DNA of 64,000 nucleotides from an uncultured Acidobacteriota bacterium (lineage in GTDB: Bacteria; Acidobacteriota; Vicinamibacteria; Vicinamibacterales; 2-12-FULL-66-21): positions 657,234-721,233 of the forward strand of contig CAWDPQ010000009.1 in the NCBI GenBank assembly GCA_963804245.1, written 5' to 3'. The translations under genes and the position numbers were made by a program. A model generated the notes under the pieces. That model searched no databases, was not told the DNA's origin, and saw only the letters and a list, made by a program, of their open reading frames with translations. Positions within the stretch are counted from its first letter, which is position 1. The number at the start of each line of letters is the position of its first letter. Below are positions 52,673 to 64,000 of this stretch, one piece after another.

Positions 52673-52714
52673 CGACCAGCCGCCAGCGTTCCAGCCACCA
52701 GCTTCCAGCTTTCC
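52673..52714. repeat. degenerate CCAGC-type tandem array
   Basis: CGACCAGCCGCCAGCGTTCCAGCCACCAGCTTCCAGCTTTCC, between convergent genes. Confidence 0.7.
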
Positions 52715-52730: not shown

Positions 52731-53108
52731 CTACCGAACGATGATCCGACCCTGCAGGTTCTGGTTGTCCGGACTGTCGTGATCGTGAAACCCGCACGTC
52801 CGCACGGCGACGAGATTCCCCGTTTCGCGGGTCTGGCCGGTCGTCAGGGCTCCCACCTGGTTGATTTCCGGACAATCACTGTGGTCCGGATGTGGATCGG
52901 AGGTGACGTCGTGCCGGCGGCCGTCGCTGTTGGTGAACAACACGCGCGCGCCTTGGCCCACCGTCAGCTCCTTGGGGCTGACGACACCTGTCGATGAAAT
53001 CGTGATGCGCGGCGCCGGCGGCGGAGGATCCGGACCCGGACCCGAGGGCGGCGCCGACCCACCGCACGAGCCGAGGGCGAAGCACAAGATCACGATACCC
53101 GGTCGCAT
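52731..53108 (-). CDS. cupredoxin-like lipoprotein with 5-His/2-Cys motif, paralogue 1
   Basis: Lipobox ALGSC followed by a Gly/Pro-rich linker. Core LFTNSDGRRHDVTSDPHPDHSDCPEIN..GQTR..CGFHDH..QGRIIV. 125 aa. Confidence 0.8.
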   Translation of the reverse strand: MRPGIVILCFALGSCGGSAPPSGPGPDPPPPAPRITISSTGVVSPKELTVGQGARVLFTNSDGRRHDVTSDPHPDHSDCPEINQVGALTTGQTRETGNLVAVRTCGFHDHDSPDNQNLQGRIIVR

Positions 53109-53158
53109 GCCGTTTCAAAGTGGCAGAAAATCGTGCCCCGCGCAACCGCCGGGTTGAC

Positions 53159-53590
53159 TTACTGAATGGTAATCCGTCCTTTGAGCGAGCCGTTCGTGTC
53201 GTCGTTGTGGTCGTGGTAGGTACACGTTCCGGCATTGCCGAATCCGTTGCTGTCGCGGGTCTGGCCGGCTGCGATGCTGCCGCGGTTGAGGGACGGGCAG
53301 GCGGTGTGCGCGGGATGCGGATCCGACGACATGTCGTGGGCTCGAGAATCGTTGTTCACGAAGAGGATGCTCTGGCCCACCGAAACGGTGACCTGCGACG
53401 GATTGACGCCGCTGCCCGTGATCGTGATGGTCGCCCCGATCGCTCCGACCGATCCGGTCGAACTGACCGTCGGTCCCGACGGTGCGTTTGGCCCACCGGA
53501 ACCGTCATCACCGCCGCCGCACGCCATGACGGTCGCGAGCGCTGCCGCGATTGCCATCTGCCCCATCCACATCTGCCATCGTTTGTTCAC
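53159..53590 (-). CDS. cupredoxin-like lipoprotein with 5-His/2-Cys motif, paralogue 2
   Basis: Start set at GTG 53590 (VNKRWQMWMGQMAIAAALATVMAC, lipobox VMAC; ATG alternatives at 53572 and 53566). Core LFVNNDSRAHDMSSDPHPAHTACPSLN..GQTR..CTYHDH..KGRITI. Confidence 0.78.
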   Translation of the reverse strand: MNKRWQMWMGQMAIAAALATVMACGGGDDGSGGPNAPSGPTVSSTGSVGAIGATITITGSGVNPSQVTVSVGQSILFVNNDSRAHDMSSDPHPAHTACPSLNRGSIAAGQTRDSNGFGNAGTCTYHDHNDDTNGSLKGRITIQ

Positions 53591-53606
53591 GACTACCCCC
53601 GAAGGA

Positions 53607-54467
53607 TTAGAAGAACTTGCGTGAAATGTTGAAACCAATGAACAGGTCGTCATTGGTGACGCCGCCCACGGCCAGTTGACTCATCGTGGTCCCGAACCCG
53701 TTTCCGAAATTGAGCTGGAAGCTGTGACCTCCGGCCCGTCGCTCGATGCCGAAGCTGTATTGGTCGACACCCGGCTCGTAGCCGAAGCGCGGAACGATCT
53801 CTCCCACCAGATAGAGGGACGGGCGGACTCGCAGTCGTCCGCCCAACCCGAGGAGAAACGTGTAGTCTTCATCGAGACTGCTGGCGACCGAATTGGTGTC
53901 GTGTATCCAGATAGGATGCGCGTAGAACGCCCCGTGCCGTCCCAGCGTGCGTGAGACGACCGCGCCGATTCCGGGCATGTAGCGGTCGCGAAAGTTGTTG
54001 GTGCCCTCTATGGTGGCGATGACGTCGACCCCTAGAGGAAAGTTCTGGCCTTGATGCAGAACCTGCTGCTGGCCGAACAGCTGGATCGTTCGATCGCTGG
54101 TGCGGTGAATCCCGATCTGCGTGCCGGCCATGATGCCGAAGCGATATTCGAGCCCGATTTGCGCGCCGGAGTCGAACCCGAAGAAATCGGAGACGAGATC
54201 CTTGAAGGAGCCTTCACCAAGCCTGCGCGTAAAGCGGTGCGTGACCCTGAACGAGCTGCCGAAGCGTGGAATCCTCAGCGTCGTCGGCAGCGTCACGATC
54301 GTGAAGTCCGGCTGCGCCGGGTTCACCGCGCGATCGCTCGGCACTTGAGGCGGCGGCGCCGGGTCCTGTCCCGCGGCCAGCGGGGCGGACGACAACCACG
54401 CGACTAATAGAAACGGACAGATCGCCCGCGGAGAAATCGTCGTTCGGCGCAACCCAAACTCCTTCAT
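53607..54467 (-). CDS. outer-membrane beta-barrel protein (family not firmly recognised)
   Basis: Signal peptide, alternating beta-strand pattern, GGHSFQLNFGNGFG motif and C-terminal ..FIGFNISRKFF (aromatic terminus typical of OMPs). 286 aa. Confidence 0.75.
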   Translation of the reverse strand: MKEFGLRRTTISPRAICPFLLVAWLSSAPLAAGQDPAPPPQVPSDRAVNPAQPDFTIVTLPTTLRIPRFGSSFRVTHRFTRRLGEGSFKDLVSDFFGFDSGAQIGLEYRFGIMAGTQIGIHRTSDRTIQLFGQQQVLHQGQNFPLGVDVIATIEGTNNFRDRYMPGIGAVVSRTLGRHGAFYAHPIWIHDTNSVASSLDEDYTFLLGLGGRLRVRPSLYLVGEIVPRFGYEPGVDQYSFGIERRAGGHSFQLNFGNGFGTTMSQLAVGGVTNDDLFIGFNISRKFF

Positions 54468-54472
54468 CCGGC

Positions 54473-54928
54473 CTAGGGCTTGATGTAAACAGGTCCCGGC
54501 GGCCCTTCGGCGCCAGCGACACGAATAGTTCCACCAAGGCCCGAGCTATCCGGATTCATGTGATCGTGAAAGCCACACGCTTTCGCGGTGTCGAACGTGC
54601 CGGTCATCCGGCTCTCGCCGGGCTGCAGGACCCCGACGTTGTTGATGGCCGGGCAGTCGGTGTGCAACAGGTGCGGGTTCGACTGTGGCTGATGCGCACG
54701 CGAATCCTGGTTCGTGAAGCGGACCTGACCCTGGACATCCACGCGCAGCTCTTTCGGATCGACAGAGCCATCCGCGCGGATAGTAATCACCGGGATGGTG
54801 GGTGTTCCACCGCCTCCTGGCGACGGTGTTGTCGGCGTACCACCACCGCCACCCCCTCCTCCGCCGCAACTCACTGTTGTGGCGACGCCAACGAGCAGGC
54901 ACCATCGATACACGACGTTGACTTGCAC
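54473..54928 (-). CDS. cupredoxin-like lipoprotein with 5-His/2-Cys motif, paralogue 3
   Basis: Start set at GTG 54928, 5 nt after AGGGAGG (alternative ATG 54943). The ORF-track TTG at 54973 is part of the sigma-54 -12 element. Lipobox TVSC and a poly-Gly linker. Core RFTNQDSRAHQPQSNPHLLHTDCPAIN..GESR..CGFHDH..GGTIRV. Confidence 0.78.
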   Translation of the reverse strand: MQVNVVYRWCLLVGVATTVSCGGGGGGGGGTPTTPSPGGGGTPTIPVITIRADGSVDPKELRVDVQGQVRFTNQDSRAHQPQSNPHLLHTDCPAINNVGVLQPGESRMTGTFDTAKACGFHDHMNPDSSGLGGTIRVAGAEGPPGPVYIKP

Positions 54929-54969
54929 CTTGCCCTCCCTCATGTCGAGCGTGTTCGCGAGGGAGTAAG

Positions 54970-54983
54970 GCAAAGCCGGTGCC
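54970..54983 (-). promoter_or_regulatory. sigma-54 (-24/-12) promoter
   Basis: Minus strand reads GGCAC-CGGCT-TTGC, i.e. GG-N10-GC with consensus-like flanks (consensus TGGCAC-N5-TTGCW). It lies ~40 nt upstream of the lipoprotein start and ~95 nt downstream of the NtrC-type regulator gene. Confidence 0.6.
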
Positions 54984-55075
54984 GAGCGCTTGGGCGCTAA
55001 AGTCTTGGAACAGCGAGGCTTAGTCGTCGCAGTCGTTACTCGGGACGAAATCGGTTACCGCGCACGTAAGCCGGT

Positions 55076-56437
55076 TCACTCCACCCGGTGCTTGGCCAGG
55101 TAGTAGCTCAGCGCGCGCTGGCTGATCCCCATGGCTTCGGCGGCGTCCTTTTTGACGCCGCCGGCAGCCTCCAGCGCGCGGCGGACCGTCTCACGCTCGG
55201 TCCAATCGAGATTCTGTCGAAGGTTCTGAGACGGCAACCCCGAGGCAACCGGTGCGTTGACGCCGAACATGGTGACGACATCGGGTCCGATCGTCGGGCT
55301 TACTGAGAGCACCACCGCCCGTTCGAGCGTGTTCTCCAATTCGCGGACGTTTCCGGGCCACTCAGCGCGCTGAAGAGATTCCATGACCCCTGGTGCGATG
55401 CCGTCGACGCGCTTGCCGGCCCGTCTGGCGTGCTTCGCAATGAAATGTTCAACGAGCAACGGGATGTCATCTCGGCGTTCGCGCAACGGCGGAATGTGAA
55501 TCGGTATGACGTTCAGTCGGTAATAGAGGTCTTCCTGGAAGCGGCCGTCCGACACCATCTGTCGCAGATCGCGATTGCTGGCGGCGATCACCCTGACATC
55601 GACTTTGCGCGTGCGCTCCGACCCGAGCGGCTCGAACTCACGCTCCTGCACCACGCGCAACAGCTTGGCCTGCAGCGCCGGGCTCATGGTCGCGATCTCG
55701 TCGAGGAAAATCGTGCCGCCGTCGGCAAGTGCGAACTTGCCTTTCTTGTTGGCGGTTGCGCCCGTGAACGCACCGCGCAGATGACCGAACAGCTCTGATT
55801 CGAGCAGCGTTTCGGGAATCGCCGCGCAGTTGACTTTGATCAGCGGCATCTCACGCTGCGCGCTGTGATAGTGAATGGCCCGGGCCACCATTTCTTTGCC
55901 GGTCCCGGTCTCGCCGGTGATGAGGACGGTGCTCTTCGTGCCGGCAACGATTTCCGCCGTGCGGACGACCTCCTGCATGCGCCGGCTCCGACCCACCAAC
56001 CCATACTGGTTGAAGTCGGCGTCCCGCTCGCTGATCAGGTATCCGTGTTCGGTGCGGAGCCGCTGATGATCCAGGGCCCGTTTGACGACGACGAGGAGCT
56101 CGTCGATTTCGAACGGTTTCTGCAGATAGTCGAAGGCGCCAAGCTTCATCGCCTCGATCGCGCTTTCGACCGTCGCGTGGGCGGTCATCATGACGACCTG
56201 CGGGCGATCGGTCGCCGGAGTGGCGGCGAGCTCGCGGATGAGATCGAGCCCGGTGAGGTCGGGCATCAGGTTGTCGACAACCAGCACGTCGAAGAAGCGC
56301 TGACCGAGCAAGCGTCGCGCCTCGTGAGGATCGGCGGTCGTGACCACCTCGTGGCCGTCGCCGCGCAGTGCGGATCCCAGCGCGTTGAGAATCTTGGTCT
56401 CGTCGTCGACGAGCAGGATTGCGCCGGCCGCCATCAT
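55076..56437 (-). CDS. sigma-54-dependent response regulator (NtrC family)
   Basis: REC domain (LLVDDE..D..MPDLTG), AAA+ domain with GETGTGKE, GAFTGA and ESELFGH, and a C-terminal Fis-type HTH. It overlaps the kinase gene by 4 nt. Confidence 0.95.
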   Translation of the reverse strand: MMAAGAILLVDDETKILNALGSALRGDGHEVVTTADPHEARRLLGQRFFDVLVVDNLMPDLTGLDLIRELAATPATDRPQVVMMTAHATVESAIEAMKLGAFDYLQKPFEIDELLVVVKRALDHQRLRTEHGYLISERDADFNQYGLVGRSRRMQEVVRTAEIVAGTKSTVLITGETGTGKEMVARAIHYHSAQREMPLIKVNCAAIPETLLESELFGHLRGAFTGATANKKGKFALADGGTIFLDEIATMSPALQAKLLRVVQEREFEPLGSERTRKVDVRVIAASNRDLRQMVSDGRFQEDLYYRLNVIPIHIPPLRERRDDIPLLVEHFIAKHARRAGKRVDGIAPGVMESLQRAEWPGNVRELENTLERAVVLSVSPTIGPDVVTMFGVNAPVASGLPSQNLRQNLDWTERETVRRALEAAGGVKKDAAEAMGISQRALSYYLAKHRVE

Positions 56438-58221
56438 CTGCGGACTGCGGCCGGGGTCTGAGGTTGCTCGAACACCTGAGCAATCGGTAACTCGATACGA
56501 ACCTCGGTGCCCGACGCGGGCCGGCTCTGGATTGAGATGGTGCCTCCCATACCCTCGATGATATTCCGGGATATCGCCAGACCGAGCCCCGTCCCGGTTC
56601 GCCGTGTCGTGAAGAAGGGATCGAACACGCGCCCGAGGTCTTCGGGGACGATTCCGGCGCCGCGATCGCGGACTTCGATCGCAATCCTCCCGTTCTTGGA
56701 TCGGGTCGTCCGCAACACGATGGCGTCGGGCAGCGCCGCCGCGCCCGATTGCGCCGTCACCGCCATCTTCGCGTTCGTCAGCACGTTGACCAGCGTCAGC
56801 CGCAAACGTTCCGCGTCCATGGTCGTGTGCGGCAGCGCCGGATCGAGGACGAGCTGGACCGTGGGTCCGCCAGGACCGGGGCGCACGGCCCGGACGGCAT
56901 CCTCACAGACCGCGTTGACGTCGGCTGGCGCCATGTCGAACTTGATCGGCCGCGCGAAGTCCAAGACCTCCGACACGATTCGGTTCAAGCGCGCGGTTTC
57001 CTCATCGATATCGGTGACGGCGGCGCGCAGATCTTCGGGCGGGATCGAACCACGGCGCAGCGTCCGCAATGCCGCCTTGATGATCATCAGCGGATTCCGG
57101 ATCTCGTGGGCGACGACGGTCGACAGGCGCCCGAGCGACGAGAGGCGCTCGCGCTGCGCCGCCTCTTTTTGAAAACGGCCGATCGAGTCGGTCATCGTAT
57201 TGAAGGTCGTCGCCAGCAGGCGGGCATCCTCATCTTCCCAGCGACCGCCGGCTCGCACCGGGATCTTTCGCGTGAGGTCGCCTGTCGAGGCCATCTCACG
57301 CATCGTCGCGGTGATCGTGCCCAGCGGACGGGTGATGGTGCGCGCGATGGCGTAACTCAACAGGGTCGCGGCCAGTACGGCGACACCCGCGGTCACGAAC
57401 AGGCTCGTGTGCAGCGCCCGCAGAAAGCGCAAGCGCTCGGTACGTGAGCGCAGAACGATGGCCATCGCTGCGCCGCTGCGATCACGTGAGAGCGTGCGAG
57501 TCATCGCCACGTACTCATCGCCGCCGATCTGCACGGTTTCTGCGGGACCCTGTCGAGCGAGAAGGGGTGTGAGCGTCGGCCATGAATCCGGCGGCAAGGT
57601 GGAGGCCTGAATCGCGTTGTTGACGGCGAAGGCGATGTCGCTGTTCGTCAGCGATCGAAACCGCGCCGCTACGCGATCGTCGAGACTGAAGCCAATGCTC
57701 AGCGTGCCGAGGATCTCGGGTTGCTGCGGGTTGATCCAGATTGGCACCGTGACCACCTGGAGGACGCCACCAGGGTGCGGCCAGAACCAGTTCGCCTCGC
57801 GTCCGGAGCGCGCCTCGAGCACACCAGGCAGCCCTTCGTAGGCGCCAGCCGCGGCGCCGGGGCTGGCCAGCCTGGCGAGAAAACGGCCGGCGCGGTCGGT
57901 CACGAGAAACAGGTCGGCCGCCACTGCGTTCTGATATTCCTTGGCGACGCCGAGCGCGGTTGGCGAATCGCCTTCGGAGACGCTCGCTTTGAGACGGGGG
58001 AGATCGGCGATGAGCCGCGCTTCACGGCTGAAATGCTCGACCTGCACCCGCCGGTTCTCTTCGATCAGCGTGCCCGCCTCCTCCAGGCCGCGGAGCAGTT
58101 CCTGCTCGGCCTGGGCGGTGACCGAGACGTTCACGTTGTAGATGGCCGCTCCGATGGTGAGCACGGCCAGCAGCGCGCTGCCGAGGAAAATCCGGTTCGT
58201 CAGCGAGGCGAAGATGCTCAT
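56434..58221 (-). CDS. sensor histidine kinase with large periplasmic domain
   Basis: Two TM segments flank a ~260-aa extracytoplasmic region. H-box VAHEIRNPL, N box LVNVLTNA, G boxes DRGAGI and GTGLGLAI. 4-nt overlaps with both neighbours. Confidence 0.92.
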   Translation of the reverse strand: MSIFASLTNRIFLGSALLAVLTIGAAIYNVNVSVTAQAEQELLRGLEEAGTLIEENRRVQVEHFSREARLIADLPRLKASVSEGDSPTALGVAKEYQNAVAADLFLVTDRAGRFLARLASPGAAAGAYEGLPGVLEARSGREANWFWPHPGGVLQVVTVPIWINPQQPEILGTLSIGFSLDDRVAARFRSLTNSDIAFAVNNAIQASTLPPDSWPTLTPLLARQGPAETVQIGGDEYVAMTRTLSRDRSGAAMAIVLRSRTERLRFLRALHTSLFVTAGVAVLAATLLSYAIARTITRPLGTITATMREMASTGDLTRKIPVRAGGRWEDEDARLLATTFNTMTDSIGRFQKEAAQRERLSSLGRLSTVVAHEIRNPLMIIKAALRTLRRGSIPPEDLRAAVTDIDEETARLNRIVSEVLDFARPIKFDMAPADVNAVCEDAVRAVRPGPGGPTVQLVLDPALPHTTMDAERLRLTLVNVLTNAKMAVTAQSGAAALPDAIVLRTTRSKNGRIAIEVRDRGAGIVPEDLGRVFDPFFTTRRTGTGLGLAISRNIIEGMGGTISIQSRPASGTEVRIELPIAQVFEQPQTPAAVRR

Positions 58222-58883
58222 CGGCGGCTGATCGAGAAGTTCAGCTCCACGTCGCCGCCCGACTCCGGGACCGTCACGCGGCGCGATTCGAGCGGCAGCG
58301 CTTCGTTCCAGACGAACACGCTGTAGGTTCCCGGCGGTACGTTGTCGAGACGGAAGCTGCCATCCGGTTCCGTCACGGCAAAATATCTGTGCGCGAAGAC
58401 CAGGATGAATGCGCTCATATGCGAATGGATCTCGCAGAACACACGGATGATCCCCGGCCGTTCGAATCGCACCGATTTCGATTTGCCGACCGCGTACCGA
58501 CCGAGGTCGAACGACTTCGCTCGCGACAGCGAAAACACGTTGTGATAGGTCAGATCGCTGTTCGGAAAATCCACGGTCGTGCCCGCAACGATGGCGAGTA
58601 CGTGCGGCATGAACGTTTCGTTGCGTTGATCGATGCGTGCTCGGGGCTCGTCACGTTCATCGAACGCGCCGCGTGGTGCCGGATCCAGGTAGACAACGCT
58701 GCGGCGATCGACGGGACCAATCGGCGTCGGCATGCCGAGGTCGGCAGGATTCGGCCGGCGATCGCGGTCGGCAGTTCCTTGACGCACATCGACGCGGCCG
58801 CGCAACGTTCCGGTGACCGGCGGCGTGGCGCCGAGGTAGAAGAGGACGAGAGCTGCGAGTAAGGAGGACGTCGCGGGCAGCAT
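58218..58883 (-). CDS. membrane-anchored cupredoxin (type-1-copper-like ligands) with C-terminal CarboxypepD_reg-like domain
   Basis: FPNSDLTYHNVFS ... PGIIRVFCEIHSHMSAFILV gives a His...Cys-x2-His-x2-Met pattern. The C-terminus FRLDNVPPGTYSVFVWN is typical of carboxypeptidase-regulatory-like beta-sandwiches. Confidence 0.82.
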   Translation of the reverse strand: MLPATSSLLAALVLFYLGATPPVTGTLRGRVDVRQGTADRDRRPNPADLGMPTPIGPVDRRSVVYLDPAPRGAFDERDEPRARIDQRNETFMPHVLAIVAGTTVDFPNSDLTYHNVFSLSRAKSFDLGRYAVGKSKSVRFERPGIIRVFCEIHSHMSAFILVFAHRYFAVTEPDGSFRLDNVPPGTYSVFVWNEALPLESRRVTVPESGGDVELNFSISRR

Positions 58884-60128
58884 CTAGAACCAGTAAGCCA
58901 GCTGACCGGACACGTATGTGCGCGAGCGAACCCGTCCGCCGTCCCGCCAGTTGCGCTGAACGACCGCACGCCCGACGAGATTGCGCAGCAGGTACCATCC
59001 CAAGCCGGTTTCCACTCGATCCACTGGTGCGTCCCAGGTTATGGGGACCCCGCCGAAGACCGTCCCGGCGATGCGCGAGAAGGTGAGCCGATCGCCGCGT
59101 GCCGCCACGAAGAACCGCGGGCTCAGTCGATATCGTCCCTCGATCCACATTCCGCAGGCATCGAGGCGGTGCGTTTCGCCGACCGCCATGAACGGCATCT
59201 GCCAGCCACTCCAGACCACCTCGCCGCGAACGAGCCAATGCGCGCGGGAATATTCGGCATCAACGCCCAACGCTCGCTGAGAATACGACCGCGATTGCGC
59301 CGTCGTCGGCAGCAGGGCAGTGACGTCGTCGGAGAGCCACTCTCCCCGAGCGGCCGAGGCACCGATGAGGAGGCCGATCATTGGCTTCGCCGCGACTCGC
59401 CCGGAGATCTGCCGGCCGCCGTTGTTGTCGGCGAACCGCGGATCCGACAGGGTACCGGCGGTTACCGCCGCCGTGGCTTCGACGTAGGCTCCGCTCCACC
59501 GTCCCTGCACGCCGGTATCCCAGCGGAATGCGCTGACGAGTGGAAGTCCCGTCGCCACTGACGTCGACCCGACGGGGAAGCTCGGCTGCCACCCGCGTCC
59601 GCGCATGCGCAGGAGGTCGTCAACCGTGTTGGGAATGGCGTCGGCACGAAGCGACGTCAGATACTGATAGGCGAGCGGGTACCCGATCAGCGGATTGTCG
59701 GCGTTGTAAGCGCGACGGCCGTAAGCGCCGAATGACGGCGGGATGCGTCCCGCCTGAATGTCGAACGCGTGGGATTGCCAGGGCCGGAACCGCACGTAGG
59801 CGGCGTGGGTATCGACCCGGCTCAAATCTTCCGACCGTATCTCCGCAATCAGGGCGACCCGGGCCATTGGGCGCCACTGACCGGCGATCGCCAGCCGCAT
59901 CAGGCGCAGGGCGTTGTGCTCGTAGTCGGTGTAATTGAAGAAGGCCGTGTCATCGGTCGGTCCGAGCGTGCCGACGATTTCCCCGCCGATGAGCAGTGTT
60001 CCGTCCGATGAGCGCAGGGGTGGCCACCCGATGCCCGGCGCATCCAGATTGGGGGCCACGGTCTGGGCCGTTGCCGCGCCCGCCGAAACAGTCAGCACGA
60101 GCGAAAGCGCCGCAGCAGCCATGCGCAT
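58884..60128 (-). CDS. porin-like outer-membrane protein
   Basis: Start moved to ATG 60128 (MRMAAAALSLVLTVSAGAATAQ signal peptide). It ends ..YVSGQLAYWF. The upstream 200 codons of the ORF-track entry run antisense through 60156..60503. Confidence 0.75.
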   Translation of the reverse strand: MRMAAAALSLVLTVSAGAATAQTVAPNLDAPGIGWPPLRSSDGTLLIGGEIVGTLGPTDDTAFFNYTDYEHNALRLMRLAIAGQWRPMARVALIAEIRSEDLSRVDTHAAYVRFRPWQSHAFDIQAGRIPPSFGAYGRRAYNADNPLIGYPLAYQYLTSLRADAIPNTVDDLLRMRGRGWQPSFPVGSTSVATGLPLVSAFRWDTGVQGRWSGAYVEATAAVTAGTLSDPRFADNNGGRQISGRVAAKPMIGLLIGASAARGEWLSDDVTALLPTTAQSRSYSQRALGVDAEYSRAHWLVRGEVVWSGWQMPFMAVGETHRLDACGMWIEGRYRLSPRFFVAARGDRLTFSRIAGTVFGGVPITWDAPVDRVETGLGWYLLRNLVGRAVVQRNWRDGGRVRSRTYVSGQLAYWF

Positions 60129-60142
60129 GGGGAAACGCCAAT

Positions 60143-60148
60143 TATAAT
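60143..60148 (+). promoter_or_regulatory. -10 box (TATAAT) 7 nt upstream of ATG 60156; candidate leaderless start
   Basis: TATAAT-cgtcggt-ATG in a 27-nt divergent intergenic spacer. Confidence 0.45.
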
Positions 60149-60155
60149 CGTCGGT

Positions 60156-60503
60156 ATGAGTGCCGAGGCCCGGCCGATTTTCTCGCTGCAGCAGGCGCGC
60201 GACCTTCTCCCCCATATCAAGCACATGACGGCGGATGCGGTCCGTCGAGCTGAGTCGCTTGCTGCGCAGCTGCATGGCCTGCAGGAGGAAGATCCGGATC
60301 ACGCAAACCTCTCGGCGGCGCTCCGCGATGTTGTGAACGGCTGGGCGGCAGAAGTCCAGGCCCTCGGCCTCGAGGCCAAGGGCCTTTGGCTCGTCGACTT
60401 CGATAACGGCGAAGGCTACTACTGCTGGTGCTACCCGGAAGAAACCGTCGCCCACTACCACGGCTACGAAGAGGGCTTCAAAGGCCGCCTCCGAATCCAG
60501 TAG
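60156..60503 (+). CDS. DUF2203-like small protein
   Basis: ..GLWLVDFDNGEGYYCWCYPEETVAHYH.. resembles the conserved core of DUF2203 proteins. This is from memory. 115 aa. Confidence 0.7.
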   Translation: MSAEARPIFSLQQARDLLPHIKHMTADAVRRAESLAAQLHGLQEEDPDHANLSAALRDVVNGWAAEVQALGLEAKGLWLVDFDNGEGYYCWCYPEETVAHYHGYEEGFKGRLRIQ

Positions 60504-60507
60504 CGCA

Positions 60508-60579
60508 TTTTTCAGCGCTCGTCCAGACCCACGCCCCGCTCGCTCTCGCTCGAGCCCCGAGCCCCCGAGCCCCCGAGCC
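60508..60579. repeat. truncated R1-type core joined to GAGCCCC array
   Basis: TTTTTCAGCGCTCG..CCCCGCTCGCTCTCGCTCGAGCCCCGAGCCCCCGAGCCCCCGAGCC. It lacks the GGCGGCTTCGCGCC..GGCCGCAGGCGCT half. Confidence 0.7.
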
Positions 60580-60613
60580 AGGATCTTGCCAAGCCCCGTG
60601 GGCCCGTATATAA

Positions 60614-61441
60614 GTGGCTCGTGAGACGTGGAATATGATTCCACATTCCGGAATACCTGAAAAGGTCGAACGCGACCCGCAGACCTCGCTCGAGAAGGCG
60701 CTCGACGTCTGCGAAGCACTGGCTGGTGCACAGCGGGGATTGAGCGTCACCGATCTTGCGCGGGGGCTCAGGCAGCCGGCACCGACGGTTCATCGCCTCC
60801 TCGCGGTGCTGAAGCGGCGCGGATTCGTTCGTCAGGACGAAGAGACTGCCCGCTACAGCCTGACGCTGAAAATGCTCGACCTCAGCTTCCGGCTGCTCGG
60901 CCGATCCGAGCTGCGGCTGCATGCCTATCCGGTTCTGCGCGAGTACGTCCTGAGGACCGGATTGCGGGCGTTCGTCGCGGTTCCGGCGGCCGGCGAGGTC
61001 ACCTATTTGTGGAGTGCCGGGCCGGACGCTGTGGGCATGCACACCGCGTACGGACGGCAGATGCCCGTGCACTGCGCGGTGTATCTGGATGCTGCCGCCG
61101 ACCGGCGCTTGAGTTGTCTGCGCCTCGAGCAGGCTCGCGATGCCGAGCAGCCAGAACGCATCGCCGTCCGCTTCGGCAAGGATTCACGCGATCCGGCGCG
61201 CCCGCCGCTGCAGCGTCTGTTGTGCACCTGTGCACCCGTCAACGACTACACAGGACGGGAAGTCGCGCGCGTGGGCGTGTTCCAGCATGCGGCCGCCGAG
61301 CGGCCGTTCGTTGGCGAGCAGACTGTTGCGGCAGCGGAGCTCGCGCGGCTGATTTCCGTGCGCCTGGGCTTCCTCCCAGCGGCGACGGGTGGAGAGGACT
61401 TCATTCAGCGAAGGAGCGTCAGTGGCGTACATCATTACTGA
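60614..61441 (+). CDS. IclR family transcriptional regulator
   Basis: SLEKALDVCEALAGAQRGLSVTDLARGLRQPAPTVHRLLAVLKRRGFV (wHTH) plus a C-terminal effector domain. The start may be ATG 60635. Confidence 0.85.
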   Translation: MARETWNMIPHSGIPEKVERDPQTSLEKALDVCEALAGAQRGLSVTDLARGLRQPAPTVHRLLAVLKRRGFVRQDEETARYSLTLKMLDLSFRLLGRSELRLHAYPVLREYVLRTGLRAFVAVPAAGEVTYLWSAGPDAVGMHTAYGRQMPVHCAVYLDAAADRRLSCLRLEQARDAEQPERIAVRFGKDSRDPARPPLQRLLCTCAPVNDYTGREVARVGVFQHAAAERPFVGEQTVAAAELARLISVRLGFLPAATGGEDFIQRRSVSGVHHY

Positions 61442-61682
61442 GCCGTGCATCGGGACCAAAGACAGTGCATGCGTCGACGTCTGTCCGGTCGACTGTATTC
61501 ACCCGCGCAAAGACGAACCGGAGTTTGCGACGGTCGAGATGCTGTACATCCATCCCGACGAGTGCATCGACTGCGGCGCTTGCGTTCCCGCGTGTCCGGT
61601 AGAGGCCATCTTCGCGCTCGACGAAACACCGGAGAAGTGGAAGAACTTCATTCCCATGAACGCGGAGTATTACCAGAAGTAA
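61422..61682 (+). CDS. fdxA: 7Fe-type ferredoxin
   Basis: GTG start 5 nt after AAGGAG. (M)AYIITEPCIGTKDSACVDVCPVDCIH and YIHPDECIDCGACVPACPVEAI. Confidence 0.88.
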   Translation: MAYIITEPCIGTKDSACVDVCPVDCIHPRKDEPEFATVEMLYIHPDECIDCGACVPACPVEAIFALDETPEKWKNFIPMNAEYYQK

Positions 61683-61785
61683 GCTGCCAGCCTCGCAGCA
61701 GCCAGCTTCCAGCTGCTGGCGACCAGCTAATCGCTTGCAGGTGAGGCTGTTTAGCTGGCTGCTGGAAGCTGGAGGCTGGAAGCTT
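61683..61785. repeat. heptamer-array hairpin (CCAGCTN arms)
   Basis: GCTGCCAGCCTCGCAGCAGCCAGCTTCCAGCTGCTGGCGACCAGCTAA / centre / TTAGCTGGCTGCTGGAAGCTGGAGGCTGGAAGC. It fills the gap between fdxA and the next gene. Confidence 0.85.
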
Positions 61786-63282: not shown

Positions 63283-63411
63283 CCTTATCTCAGTGCGCTT
63301 GGGGCCCCACCCCCAAGCGCTCTCGCTCGCGGGCTCGGCTCCGCCTCGCTCCCCTCCGGCCGCTCGCTCGGGCCGCAGGCGCTCTCCTAGCTCCTGGCTC
63401 CTAGCTCCTGA
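63283..63411 (-). repeat. MITE-like core family R1 copy f + CTCCTAG heptamer array
   Basis: ..GTGCGCTTGGGGCCCCACCCCCAAGCGCTCTCGCTCGCGGGCTCGG..CGCTCGGGCCGCAGGCGCT, then CTCCTAG CTCCTGG CTCCTAG CTCCTGA (63384-63411). The array encodes the last 8 codons and the stop of the thioesterase gene. Confidence 0.85.
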
Positions 63412-63854
63412 CCGAGCGCCCGACGGGCCTTCAGCCTCTCGGCGCGCCTGAGCTCCGCCTCGGCCGCTTTCCGTTTCTCTTCCTCGGTTTCGAGAAGCAG
63501 CGGCGGCACCTGCACGCGCTTGCCGGCCGTGTCGATCGTGACGAAGGTGAGGTAGGCACGGCTGGTCAGCTGCCGTAGTCCGGTGAGAATTTCTTCCGAG
63601 AACACCTCGACTTCTGCTTCGAGCGATGTGCTCCAGGCGGCGGTGACACGCGAGTGCAGGATGATGAGGTCGCCAACCTTGATCGGGTGCAGGAACTGCA
63701 GCCCGTCGACGGCAGCGGTCACCAGCAGACTTCGCGTATGCCGGTGGCAGGCAATGGCCCCGACGATGTCGATGAGGTGCATCACCGTGCCACCGAGGAT
63801 GAAGCCGAGCGGGTTGGCATCGTTCGGGAGAACGACCTGCACCATCTCCGTCAT
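63387..63854 (-). CDS. acyl-CoA thioesterase (hotdog fold, YciA/BFIT-like)
   Basis: Start at ATG 63854 (MTEMVQVVLPNDANPLGFILGGTVMHLIDIVGAIA). Confidence 0.85.
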   Translation of the reverse strand: MTEMVQVVLPNDANPLGFILGGTVMHLIDIVGAIACHRHTRSLLVTAAVDGLQFLHPIKVGDLIILHSRVTAAWSTSLEAEVEVFSEEILTGLRQLTSRAYLTFVTIDTAGKRVQVPPLLLETEEEKRKAAEAELRRAERLKARRALGQELGARS

Positions 63855-63895
63855 CGATTCCGATGGACGTTTTGCTGCGACGCTGGGAGATGCGC

Positions 63896-64000
63896 TCAAT
63901 TGCGACAACCGCGGTCGACGAACGCTTTCAGCGTCCACCGCAGCTCGGCCGGGAGATCTTCTTCCTTGATTGTGCGGAGAAGGGAAACCGTGGACGCGTA
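63896..64000 (-). CDS. 3' end of an unidentified gene continuing beyond the window
   Basis: Frame open from the window edge to TGA (63896-63898): ..TVSLLRTIKEEDLPAELRWTLKAFVDRGCRN. Too short to classify. Confidence 0.3.
   Translation of the reverse strand, partial: YASTVSLLRTIKEEDLPAELRWTLKAFVDRGCRN

Follow-up and report, generated by a model that had tools for sequence, protein, structure and literature searches.

Genes at 52731–54928 and the family of their products

The DNA analyzed here is a window of 64,000 nucleotides (64 kb) from contig CAWDPQ010000009.1 of an uncultured Acidobacteriota bacterium, in which the interval 52731–54928 contains four co-directional genes on the minus strand. 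In the direction of transcription these code for paralog C, a DUF5777 outer-membrane protein, paralog B and paralog A, the three paralogs being predicted lipoproteins with a cupredoxin-like domain that carries a conserved H-D-H motif; we refer to them and their homologs as the HDH family. The first-pass annotation of this DNA had described three paralogous lipoproteins, and three minus-strand open reading frames (ORFs) occur here as described, with pairwise BLASTP matches of 44 % identity between A and B (E = 2e-28) and 50 % between A and C (E = 7e-30). It did not, however, mention the fourth gene, for the DUF5777 barrel, situated between C and B. Since the gaps between C, the DUF5777 gene, B and A are short (5, 16 and 50 nt, respectively) and the next downstream gene is on the opposite strand, the four genes form a single operon.

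Paralog A (52731–53108, minus strand) starts with ATG and codes for 125 amino acids, comprising a lipobox with Cys15, a Pro-rich linker and the HDH-cupredoxin domain (residues 33–125). Paralog B (53159–53590, minus strand), whose orthologs include P0005 and P0010, has its lipobox cysteine at position 24, followed by a linker and the HDH-cupredoxin domain; its start is most likely the GTG at 53590 (143 amino acids), which lies 16 nt past the stop codon of the preceding gene and agrees with the ortholog P0005. Paralog C (54473–54928, minus strand) contains lipobox Cys21, a Gly/Pro linker, the HDH-cupredoxin domain and a conserved C-terminal tail (AGAEGPPGPVYIKP). The GTG start at 54928 that was originally assigned to this gene has a GGGAGG sequence six bases upstream, and its orthologs begin at the same residue; the ATG at 54943 chosen by the gene caller is less likely.

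Judged by their sequence, A, B and C have both the signal peptide and the lipobox ([LVI][ASTVI][GAS]C) of lipoproteins. The signal peptide extends to the lipobox cysteine (LGSC in A, VMAC in B and TVSC in C, as a sequence pattern only), which is followed in each case by GG and then by a linker of Gly, Pro, Ser and Thr leading to the domain. The lipobox pattern is present in 155 of 217 short family members, with Gly at position +2 in 128, and the linker of these short members has a median length of 23 amino acids. In other family members, TIG, fn3, PKD, Big_2 or CarboxypepD_reg repeats precede the domain, which would therefore be displayed on a stalk. The mature domains of A, B and C comprise ca. 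93 residues each and are 44–50 % identical.

When the A domain was modeled with AlphaFold2 (AF2) using 29 homologs, the result had a mean predicted local distance difference test score (pLDDT) of 93.9 and a predicted template modeling score (pTM) of 0.84; as modeled, the domain is the superimposable eight-stranded Greek-key sandwich that characterizes the cupredoxin fold superfamily. Comparison of this model with the PDB using Foldseek returned 100 matches with E ≤ 0.001, and the top 50 were nearly all cupredoxins, with template modeling (TM) scores of 0.68–0.77 and 13–22 % identity. The best match was the purple cupredoxin 5fc9 (Nmar1307; E = 2.9e-6, TM 0.76, 20 % identity), followed by plastocyanins (TM ~0.76), amicyanins and a Bacillus Cupredoxin_1 protein; for 5fc9 and the plastocyanins together, TM ranged from 0.72 to 0.77. 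Additionally, mean-field covariation over 395 non-redundant domains, with an effective number of sequences (Neff) of 226, recovered the cupredoxin strand pairings 1–3, 3–6, 2b–8 and 7–8. The cupredoxin scaffold put forward in the first-pass annotation is well supported by the confidence of the model and by its leading structural matches.

The NCBIfam scan of A, B and C never reached a family threshold, and scores against Pfam were likewise low. Model PF13473 (Cupredoxin_1) gave 11.9–17 bits against a cut-off of 27, with no match at all to C, and PF00127 (Copper-bind) matched B alone, with 13.4 bits against a cut-off of 21.2. The plastocyanin model TIGR02656 scored 16.8 bits against a cut-off of 87.85, and neither NF051440 (CopI) nor TIGR03096 (nitrosocyanin) matched A, B or C at E ≤ 1. 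A sequence search of the PDB found no relative (best E ~0.07), the similarity to 5fc9 being insignificant at this level (E ~0.5–0.8). Among the curated models and solved structures of Pfam, NCBIfam and the PDB we found none covering the HDH family.

A word-indexed search identified at least 3,226 proteins of the family, nearly all of them lacking Pfam annotation and named 'plastocyanin' or 'hypothetical', and an exhaustive profile search of 1.84 billion representatives retrieved 592 clusters (50 % identity) at E ≤ 1e-10 and 2,960 at E ≤ 1e-3. A scan of one genome per species yielded 226 loci, the best 80 of which were almost all from metagenome-assembled genomes of Vicinamibacterales or other Acidobacteriota. 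It is already known that cupredoxin-fold proteins can diverge and lose or alter their sites, and the HDH family represents a variant within this familiar fold class and no new kind of system, its site being unlike the described cupredoxin centers.

Positions of the conserved histidines and cysteines

Residues are numbered here from Pro33 of paralog A, taken as residue 1 of the domain. The motif reported in the first-pass annotation (R-x-H, P-H-x2-H-x2-C-P and C-x2-H-D-H) is present exactly in A, B and C; in paralog A, the codons for P-H-P-D-H-S-D-C-P, which include H41, H44 and C47, are at 52869–52895 and those for C-G-F-H-D-H, with C73, H76, D77 and H78, at 52779–52796, both on the minus strand. 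Across 270 domain instances, conservation was 99 % for C47, 98 % for C73, 98 % for H76, 97 % for D77, 96 % for H78, 96 % for H44, 90 % for H41 and 89 % for H34. The five histidines and two cysteines are thus invariant among the three paralogs, as had been claimed, but not across the family: H34 is changed to Arg in ca. 20 sequences (~9 %) in which everything else is kept, and H41 is replaced by many different residues in ca. 10 % of the members. At least one of H34 and H44 is retained in every family member.

The 26 most diverged members have N28, C47, P48, G59, C73, H76, H78 and G88 as invariant residues. A metagenomic subfamily, retrieved with an alignment of four sequences as the query (65 loci), has G-G in place of S38-D39, Asp in place of H41, often Thr, Asn, Arg or Ser in place of H44, and Phe at position 86, with H34, C47, C73 and H76-D77-H78 invariant. 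Because they are kept across the 270 domains, the diverged members and this G-G subfamily, residues C47, C73 and H76-D77-H78 constitute the universal core. Loss of the His and Cys positions in homologs from other genomes, which would have spoken against the motif as first proposed, was not found, since these positions are kept across hundreds of diverged homologs. A chance origin of the motif was rejected in view of the pairwise E-values of 1e-28 to 1e-30 and the family-wide conservation.

In type-1 copper proteins, strand 7 ends with the ligand Cys and strand 8 begins with the ligand Met. The N-terminal part of the domain had been considered plastocyanin-like, and the R-x-H histidine, H34, was indeed paired with His37 of plastocyanin in every HMMER and hhalign alignment; H34 occupies the place of the N-terminal His ligand of type-1 sites, even though it is only 89 % conserved. 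At the other end, C-x2-H-D-H had been taken as a modified type-1 C-x2-H-x(n)-M loop, and this did not hold equally well: only hhalign aligned it in this way, whereas the AF2 strands, HMMER and covariation disagreed. The hhalign targets were a canonical type-1 cupredoxin from the same cluster and poplar plastocyanin (ligands C84 and H87), the sequence of the latter being entered by hand, and the pairing required a 4-residue gap before the motif and a 5-residue gap after it, with alignments that ended before strand 8 or misplaced it. In contrast, the HMMER alignment to two plastocyanins reached the C-terminus with a single one-residue indel and paired C73 with Tyr80, F75 with Phe/Tyr82, H76 with Tyr83, D77 with Cys84, L86 with Met92 and G88 with Gly94.

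According to DSSP, strand 7 of the AF2 model comprises residues 72–76 and strand 8 residues 87–92, with a local pLDDT of 94–95. The strand thus extends three residues past C73, which would leave C73 and H76 on opposite faces of a regular strand. The top covarying pairs were H34–L86 (z = 5.7), D35–D79 (4.8), F75–G88 (4.7), H41–P81 (4.1), D39–G74 (4.1) and S38–G74 (3.7); the signals of S38 and D39 with G74 reflect a size swap, S-D occurring with Gly in the main family and G-G with Arg, Gln or Asp in the subfamily. When the register of strands 4 and 7 was examined by averaging along anti-diagonals, i + j = 111–114 was positive and 108 was the most negative; C73 as a ligand requires the 108 register and is therefore unsupported.

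Because the strand limits of the model, the covarying pairs and the register of strands 4 and 7 all favor the HMMER alignment, we consider it fairly likely that H-D-H is located at the end of strand 7, that L86 takes the position of the axial Met beside H34, and that C73 is in the middle of the strand, 3–4 residues earlier. With respect to the type-1 signature C-x(2-4)-H-x(2-5)-M, the Met is clearly missing and, with moderate confidence, so is the Cys. As Asp would replace the ligand Cys, the HDH domain would have no type-1 center. Two other kinds of redox site were also discarded for A, B and C, a haem site given that they lack a CxxCH motif and a CuA site given that they lack C-x3-C.

Compared with the neighboring type-1 cupredoxin, P-H-x2-H appears in the hhalign alignment as a 5-residue insertion after strand 4, so that the inserted loop with a second Cys and two His noted in the first-pass annotation is an insertion relative to this protein. 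Within the loop, H41 covaries with P81 and N83, in the segment past H78, and H44 with V36 and T72; the neighbors of C47, D46 and E49, covary with R71, and D46 also does so with I90, the predicted cross-strand partner of C73. In a natural variant, P0197, both cysteines are lost together (replaced by Trp and Ile) and all five histidines are kept. Since the two cysteines are invariant in an exported domain, are probably close in space and are lost together, they most likely form a C47–C73 disulfide by which the inserted loop with its histidines is fastened to strand 7. The loop (D39–C47) would bring H41 and H44 beside the 78–83 loop, and the histidines would cluster at the 'northern/eastern' end of the domain, with H34, D77 and H78 having H41 on one side and H76 adjoining H44.

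The tail of paralog C (54473–54520, minus strand) is a conserved extension found in C-type paralogs, A-G-A-E-G-P-P-G-P-V-Y-I-K-P. The motif G.EGP.GP.Y was found in 29 of 269 family proteins, and other subfamilies terminate in ...G-Y or ...A-Y. The conserved terminal Tyr could fold back on the His site or serve as a sorting signal.

Gene neighborhood and regulation

The DUF5777 gene (53607–54467, minus strand) codes for a member of Pfam family PF19089 (E = 2.1e-27, 96.4 bits against a cut-off of 23.1). Its AF2 model (pLDDT 76) is a β-barrel of 12 strands, the first and second of which are separated by a short helix, and its best Foldseek matches were FapF, KdgM/NanC and COG4313 channels (TM ~0.5). 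A role as a copper channel was considered and found unsupported, as PcoB was not among the 50 matches listed. The DUF5777 gene has an HDH-cupredoxin gene as its neighbor in 53 of 84 related loci. Ahead of the barrel, the N-terminal stretch of 45 residues (SDRAVNPxQPDFT..LPTTLRIPRFGSSFRVTHRF, residues ~44–80 of the protein) is almost invariant in 32 homologs and was modeled with low confidence (pLDDT 52–57); this segment may be a plug or may bind a partner.

Upstream of paralog C there is a candidate sigma-54 (−24/−12) promoter (CGGCACCGGCTTTGC, 54970–54984, minus strand), with the sequence CGGCAC-N5-TTTGC (54984–54970), which has one mismatch to TGGCAC-N5-TTGC. It lies between the activator gene and C, its 3′ end being 41 nt upstream of the GTG of C, and is the sole match to GG[CT]A[CT]N5TTGC on both strands of the window. 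A sigma-54 motif is found directly past the regulator gene in 49 of the 55 related loci with a regulator, against a frequency across loci of 0.04 per kb per strand, which includes those 49 sites. The −24 GG and −12 GC elements together with a gene for an enhancer-binding protein suggest, from sequence, a sigma-54-dependent operon. The regulator (55076–56437, minus strand) is of the NtrC type, with the Pfam domains Response_reg, Sigma54_activat (E = 3.9e-73) and HTH_8; its best NCBIfam models were AtoC, NtrC and ZraR, all below cut-off. It is preceded by the gene for a sensor histidine kinase (56434–58221, minus strand) with a periplasmic domain, HAMP, HisKA and HATPase.

Next to the kinase, 58218–58883 (minus strand) codes for an exported protein of 221 amino acids in which a canonical type-1 cupredoxin domain (H-N-V-F ... 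C-E-I-H-S-H-M), its ligands invariant in 39 orthologs, precedes a CarboxypepD_reg domain. In most related loci this gene is directly upstream of the kinase gene and overlaps it, which suggests that its product could be a co-sensor. The first gene of the regulator operon, which is also upstream of the kinase in most related loci, codes for a porin-like outer-membrane protein (58884–60128, minus strand; 414 amino acids from the ATG at 60128) with a signal peptide and a C-terminal ...YWF, and no match in Pfam or NCBIfam. The mechanically called porin ORF of 615 codons (58884–60731) is ca. 200 codons too long, the probable start being the ATG at 60128 (MRMAAAAL).

The recurrent gene order in the 84 related loci is porin-like protein, type-1 cupredoxin, kinase, activator, DUF5777 and HDH gene or genes. 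The activator is present in 55 of these loci, and most have a single HDH copy, with two copies in 21. Two further genes occur between the regulator and DUF5777 in other loci, and both are missing from the window: one for a CuA-motif cupredoxin (13 loci) and one for a CxxCH lipoprotein (17 loci). The former has a CuA-type motif, H...C-S-E-Y-C-G-x-G-H-x2-M, and its best NCBIfam models are the C-terminal domains of NosZ and CoxB; the NCBIfam model for CopI matched only a CuA-like neighbor of this kind from another locus. These CuA-motif proteins are soluble, with the motif C-x-E-x-C-G-x2-H-x2-M (L022 3961–4416, L030, L039, L068 and others), and the CxxCH lipoproteins have one haem motif and are weakly PSCyt1-like (L005 3989–4453, L012 and others).

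For 'solo' HDH copies, the neighbors retained after filtering by G+C content at third codon positions (GC3) were heterogeneous, with only a MacB/ADOP-like permease and TonB-type receptors; the distant members P0230, P0229 and P0121 are on contigs of 1–3 kb. In the diverged G-G subfamily (G-G-P-D-P), the gene often follows a MacB/FtsX-type ('duplicated orphan permease'-like) gene with a 4-nt overlap, namely in 12 of the loci L088–L167 (including L102 3–1364), a setting unlike that with DUF5777 and sigma-54.

The flanks of the cluster (~60745–61690 and 63387–63938) code for a 4Fe-4S ferredoxin, a DUF2203 protein and a 4HBT thioesterase, and the same flanking genes occur in a distant Vicinamibacterales locus that has of this cluster only one pair of genes, DUF5777 and HDH (L002 5926–7131). 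Just outside both ends of the 9-kb cluster there is a GCTGG-rich repeat (AGCTGGAAGCTGG; 52698–52710 and 61702–61714, minus strand, and 61760–61779, plus strand), for which five matches were found where chance predicts 0.12; the repeat may represent a repetitive extragenic palindromic (REP)-like intergenic element or a terminator.

Proposed role, alternatives and known systems

We propose that the HDH proteins are the metal-binding component, with copper as the most likely metal, of a system at the outer membrane that includes the DUF5777 channel, and that they serve in binding, buffering or hand-over of the metal, a reading for which we see about even chances. The type-1 copper site would have been dismantled in the HDH subfamily and a histidine-rich site would have taken its place, with H34 retaining the position of the N-terminal copper ligand and L86 replacing the axial Met. 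A metal ion would be bound by H76 and H78 with at least one of H34, H41 and H44, most likely as a nitrogen/oxygen-ligated (type-2-like) metal site and not a blue thiolate one. The domain would be tethered to its lipid anchor by a flexible linker of ca. 20–25 residues. The HDH genes and the DUF5777 channel would be co-expressed from the sigma-54 promoter, driven by the adjacent kinase and NtrC-type regulator, and the regulator operon would add a genuine type-1 cupredoxin and a porin-like protein. Overall, the operon would act as an inducible module of the cell envelope for binding, buffering or passing on metal at the outer membrane, with the three paralogs as variants of the binding component. 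The cluster is tied to copper and redox chemistry by the type-1 cupredoxin here and by the CuA-motif and CxxCH proteins in other loci. Of all this, the fold, the conservation across the family, the structure of the operon and the conserved promoter follow directly from the analysis, whereas the disulfide, the set of ligands, the metal and the physiological role are deduced.

Several observations weigh against this proposal. At 60–63 % probability, hhalign matches C73 to the ligand Cys and H76 to the ligand His, several of the covariation signals involve nearly invariant columns (D77, G88) with few sequences behind them, and P0197 is the only clear example in which both Cys were lost together. 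The DUF5777 barrel is similar to 12-strand channels of the general or protein-conducting type and not to the copper channel PcoB, and the periplasmic domain of the kinase has no recognizable metal-sensing motif. Beyond the Vicinamibacterales-type loci, this gene context is largely missing: among the loci of the G-G subfamily, DUF5777 was found in 7 of 80 and regulators in 6 of 80, many of the contigs being short. A literature search found no paper on the HDH family or DUF5777.

Following the first-pass annotation, C73, H76 and H34 would form a modified type-1 thiolate center with H78 in place of the axial Met; the loop residues H41, H44 and C47 would add ligands, possibly giving a red or purple mononuclear center or a CuA-like binuclear thiolate one, and the proteins would then be electron carriers. 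The hhalign pairing of C73/H76/H78 with the C-x2-H-x-H(M) of the type-1 cupredoxin from the cluster, and with C84/H87 of plastocyanin, agrees with a thiolate site, as do the identical C-x2-H spacing, the purple cupredoxin 5fc9 as best structural match and the presence of electron-transfer partners (the CuA-motif cupredoxin and the CxxCH protein) in the same operon at other loci. Nevertheless, we consider it unlikely, given that the modeled strand continues three residues beyond C73, that the hhalign pairing needs two large gaps and fails at strand 8, that the almost ungapped HMMER alignment places D77 at the Cys position, and that covariation favors the 111–114 register instead of 108 and puts L86 beside H34; moreover, H34 is Arg in ca. 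9 % of the members with everything else retained, and one member without either Cys still has all five histidines. It appears rather unlikely, too, that the function is metal-free, with the His, Asp and Cys residues forming a surface that senses pH or a ligand, or one that docks with or plugs the DUF5777 channel, on a fold that is only a scaffold; the linker might even thread the DUF5777 barrel, as RcsF does in Omp proteins. This possibility is consistent with the tight linkage to a 12-strand barrel, with the polypeptide transporter FapF and autotransporter/intimin barrels among the closest folds of this barrel, and with flexible linkers of ca. 23 residues, long enough to cross the membrane. 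However, an H-x-H at the end of a strand with two to three more His and an Asp, 90–98 % conserved amid variable surroundings, is a typical signature of a metal site, the gene neighbors are copper and haem proteins, and the domain is found without the barrel too.

A catalytic copper could also be bound between chains, H76 and H78 of one chain joining a His of another as in NirK and two-domain multicopper oxidases (MCOs), in which case a homo-oligomer, or a hetero-oligomer of A, B and C, would be a small oxidoreductase associated with the outer membrane and fed by cytochrome c and CuA-type proteins. On the mapping made here, H-D-H is at the same topological position as H-C-H in MCOs or H-C in NirK, three paralogs are co-transcribed at this locus and two HDH copies occur at 21 of the 84 related loci, redox partners are encoded in 13–17 loci, and NirK cupredoxin domains are among the structural matches with the lowest root-mean-square deviation (Foldseek ranks 40–41). 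Conversely, most loci have a single copy and one subfamily occurs alone in unrelated contexts, the inserted loop already offers intramolecular His partners, as the H41–P81 coupling suggests, and the same chain has no type-1 center to feed a catalytic site; an interface site is therefore very unlikely. The metal-binding envelope component proposed above can be extended to a bolder form that we regard as improbable: a new copper center on a single cupredoxin domain, made of two His flanking the former Cys position and a disulfide-stapled His loop. Such a center would correspond, in free-standing form, to the interface (type-2/type-3) sites of NirK and MCOs and would possibly be a living model of the single-domain ancestor proposed for them; combined with DUF5777 and, in some genomes, with a CuA-type cupredoxin and a cytochrome c, it would constitute a redox or copper-trafficking system not known before at the outer membrane of Acidobacteriota.

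In cupredoxins a single fold tunes a single metal site, which has made them a textbook example, and bioinorganic chemistry and protein design have learned from every new ligand set found so far (red, green, purple, CuA). The HDH family is abundant in soil Acidobacteriota. If its His cluster binds copper, it would show how a type-1 site can be converted to a nitrogen-ligated site within one domain, give a function to DUF5777 barrels and reveal a sigma-54-controlled envelope regulon in a phylum whose metal homeostasis is almost unstudied; if it binds no metal, it would be an ordinary family of divergent cupredoxin-fold lipoproteins.

The HDH family shares with the type-1 blue copper proteins plastocyanin and amicyanin the eight-stranded Greek-key fold (TM ~0.76), an N-x-D-x3-H segment with the N-terminal ligand His and a C-terminal G-x-I-x-V strand. 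It differs from them in scoring below both Pfam thresholds, in having Leu at the Met position and in the 5-residue inserted loop with His and a second Cys; the sole Cys of strand 7 would be 3–4 residues before the ligand position, with H-D-H ending the strand. The site of 5fc9 consists of a Cys and two His with an axial water. Like the HDH family, 5fc9 is a cupredoxin with a non-classical site, although the HDH family probably lacks the equivalent Cys. In multicopper oxidases (H-C-H) and NirK (H-C), histidines flank the type-1 Cys and bind non-blue (type-2/3) copper on the outer face of a cupredoxin domain. The HDH family would likewise have His on either side of the position of the type-1 Cys, where strand 7 ends, and more His on or after strand 4, a likeness drawn from topology and not from superposition. 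It differs in that Asp would replace the Cys, there is a single domain and the partner His would come from the intramolecular inserted loop; the spacing past H34 is x6-H-x2-H, compared with H-x2-H-x-H in those enzymes.

Laz is the lipid-modified azurin of Neisseria. As in A, B and C, a lipobox is followed by a low-complexity linker (Pro/Ala-rich or Gly/Pro-rich) and one cupredoxin domain, which is thereby anchored to the outer membrane; unlike them, Laz is an electron carrier with a normal azurin type-1 site, without an inserted His loop or linkage to DUF5777. CopI is a periplasmic cupredoxin-like copper-tolerance protein that acts as a copper buffer (PMC13308877) and keeps a Cys/His/His/Met type-1 site, with extra His and Met in disordered stretches (PMC13308877); the HDH family has its His at fixed structural positions and has apparently lost the type-1 site, and no sequence similarity to CopI was detected in A, B or C. 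In Myxococcus xanthus, the copper-responsive sigma-54 two-component system CorSR (PMC3707914) controls the curA operon, whose products include a cytochrome c and MXAN_3421, a His-rich protein with Cupredoxin_1 (PMC3707914). CopI and MXAN_3421 resemble the HDH family in being exported cupredoxin-like proteins with extra histidines, their role being copper handling in the envelope, and the neighborhood of MXAN_3421, with its cytochrome c and sigma-54 two-component system, is akin to the context of the HDH genes.

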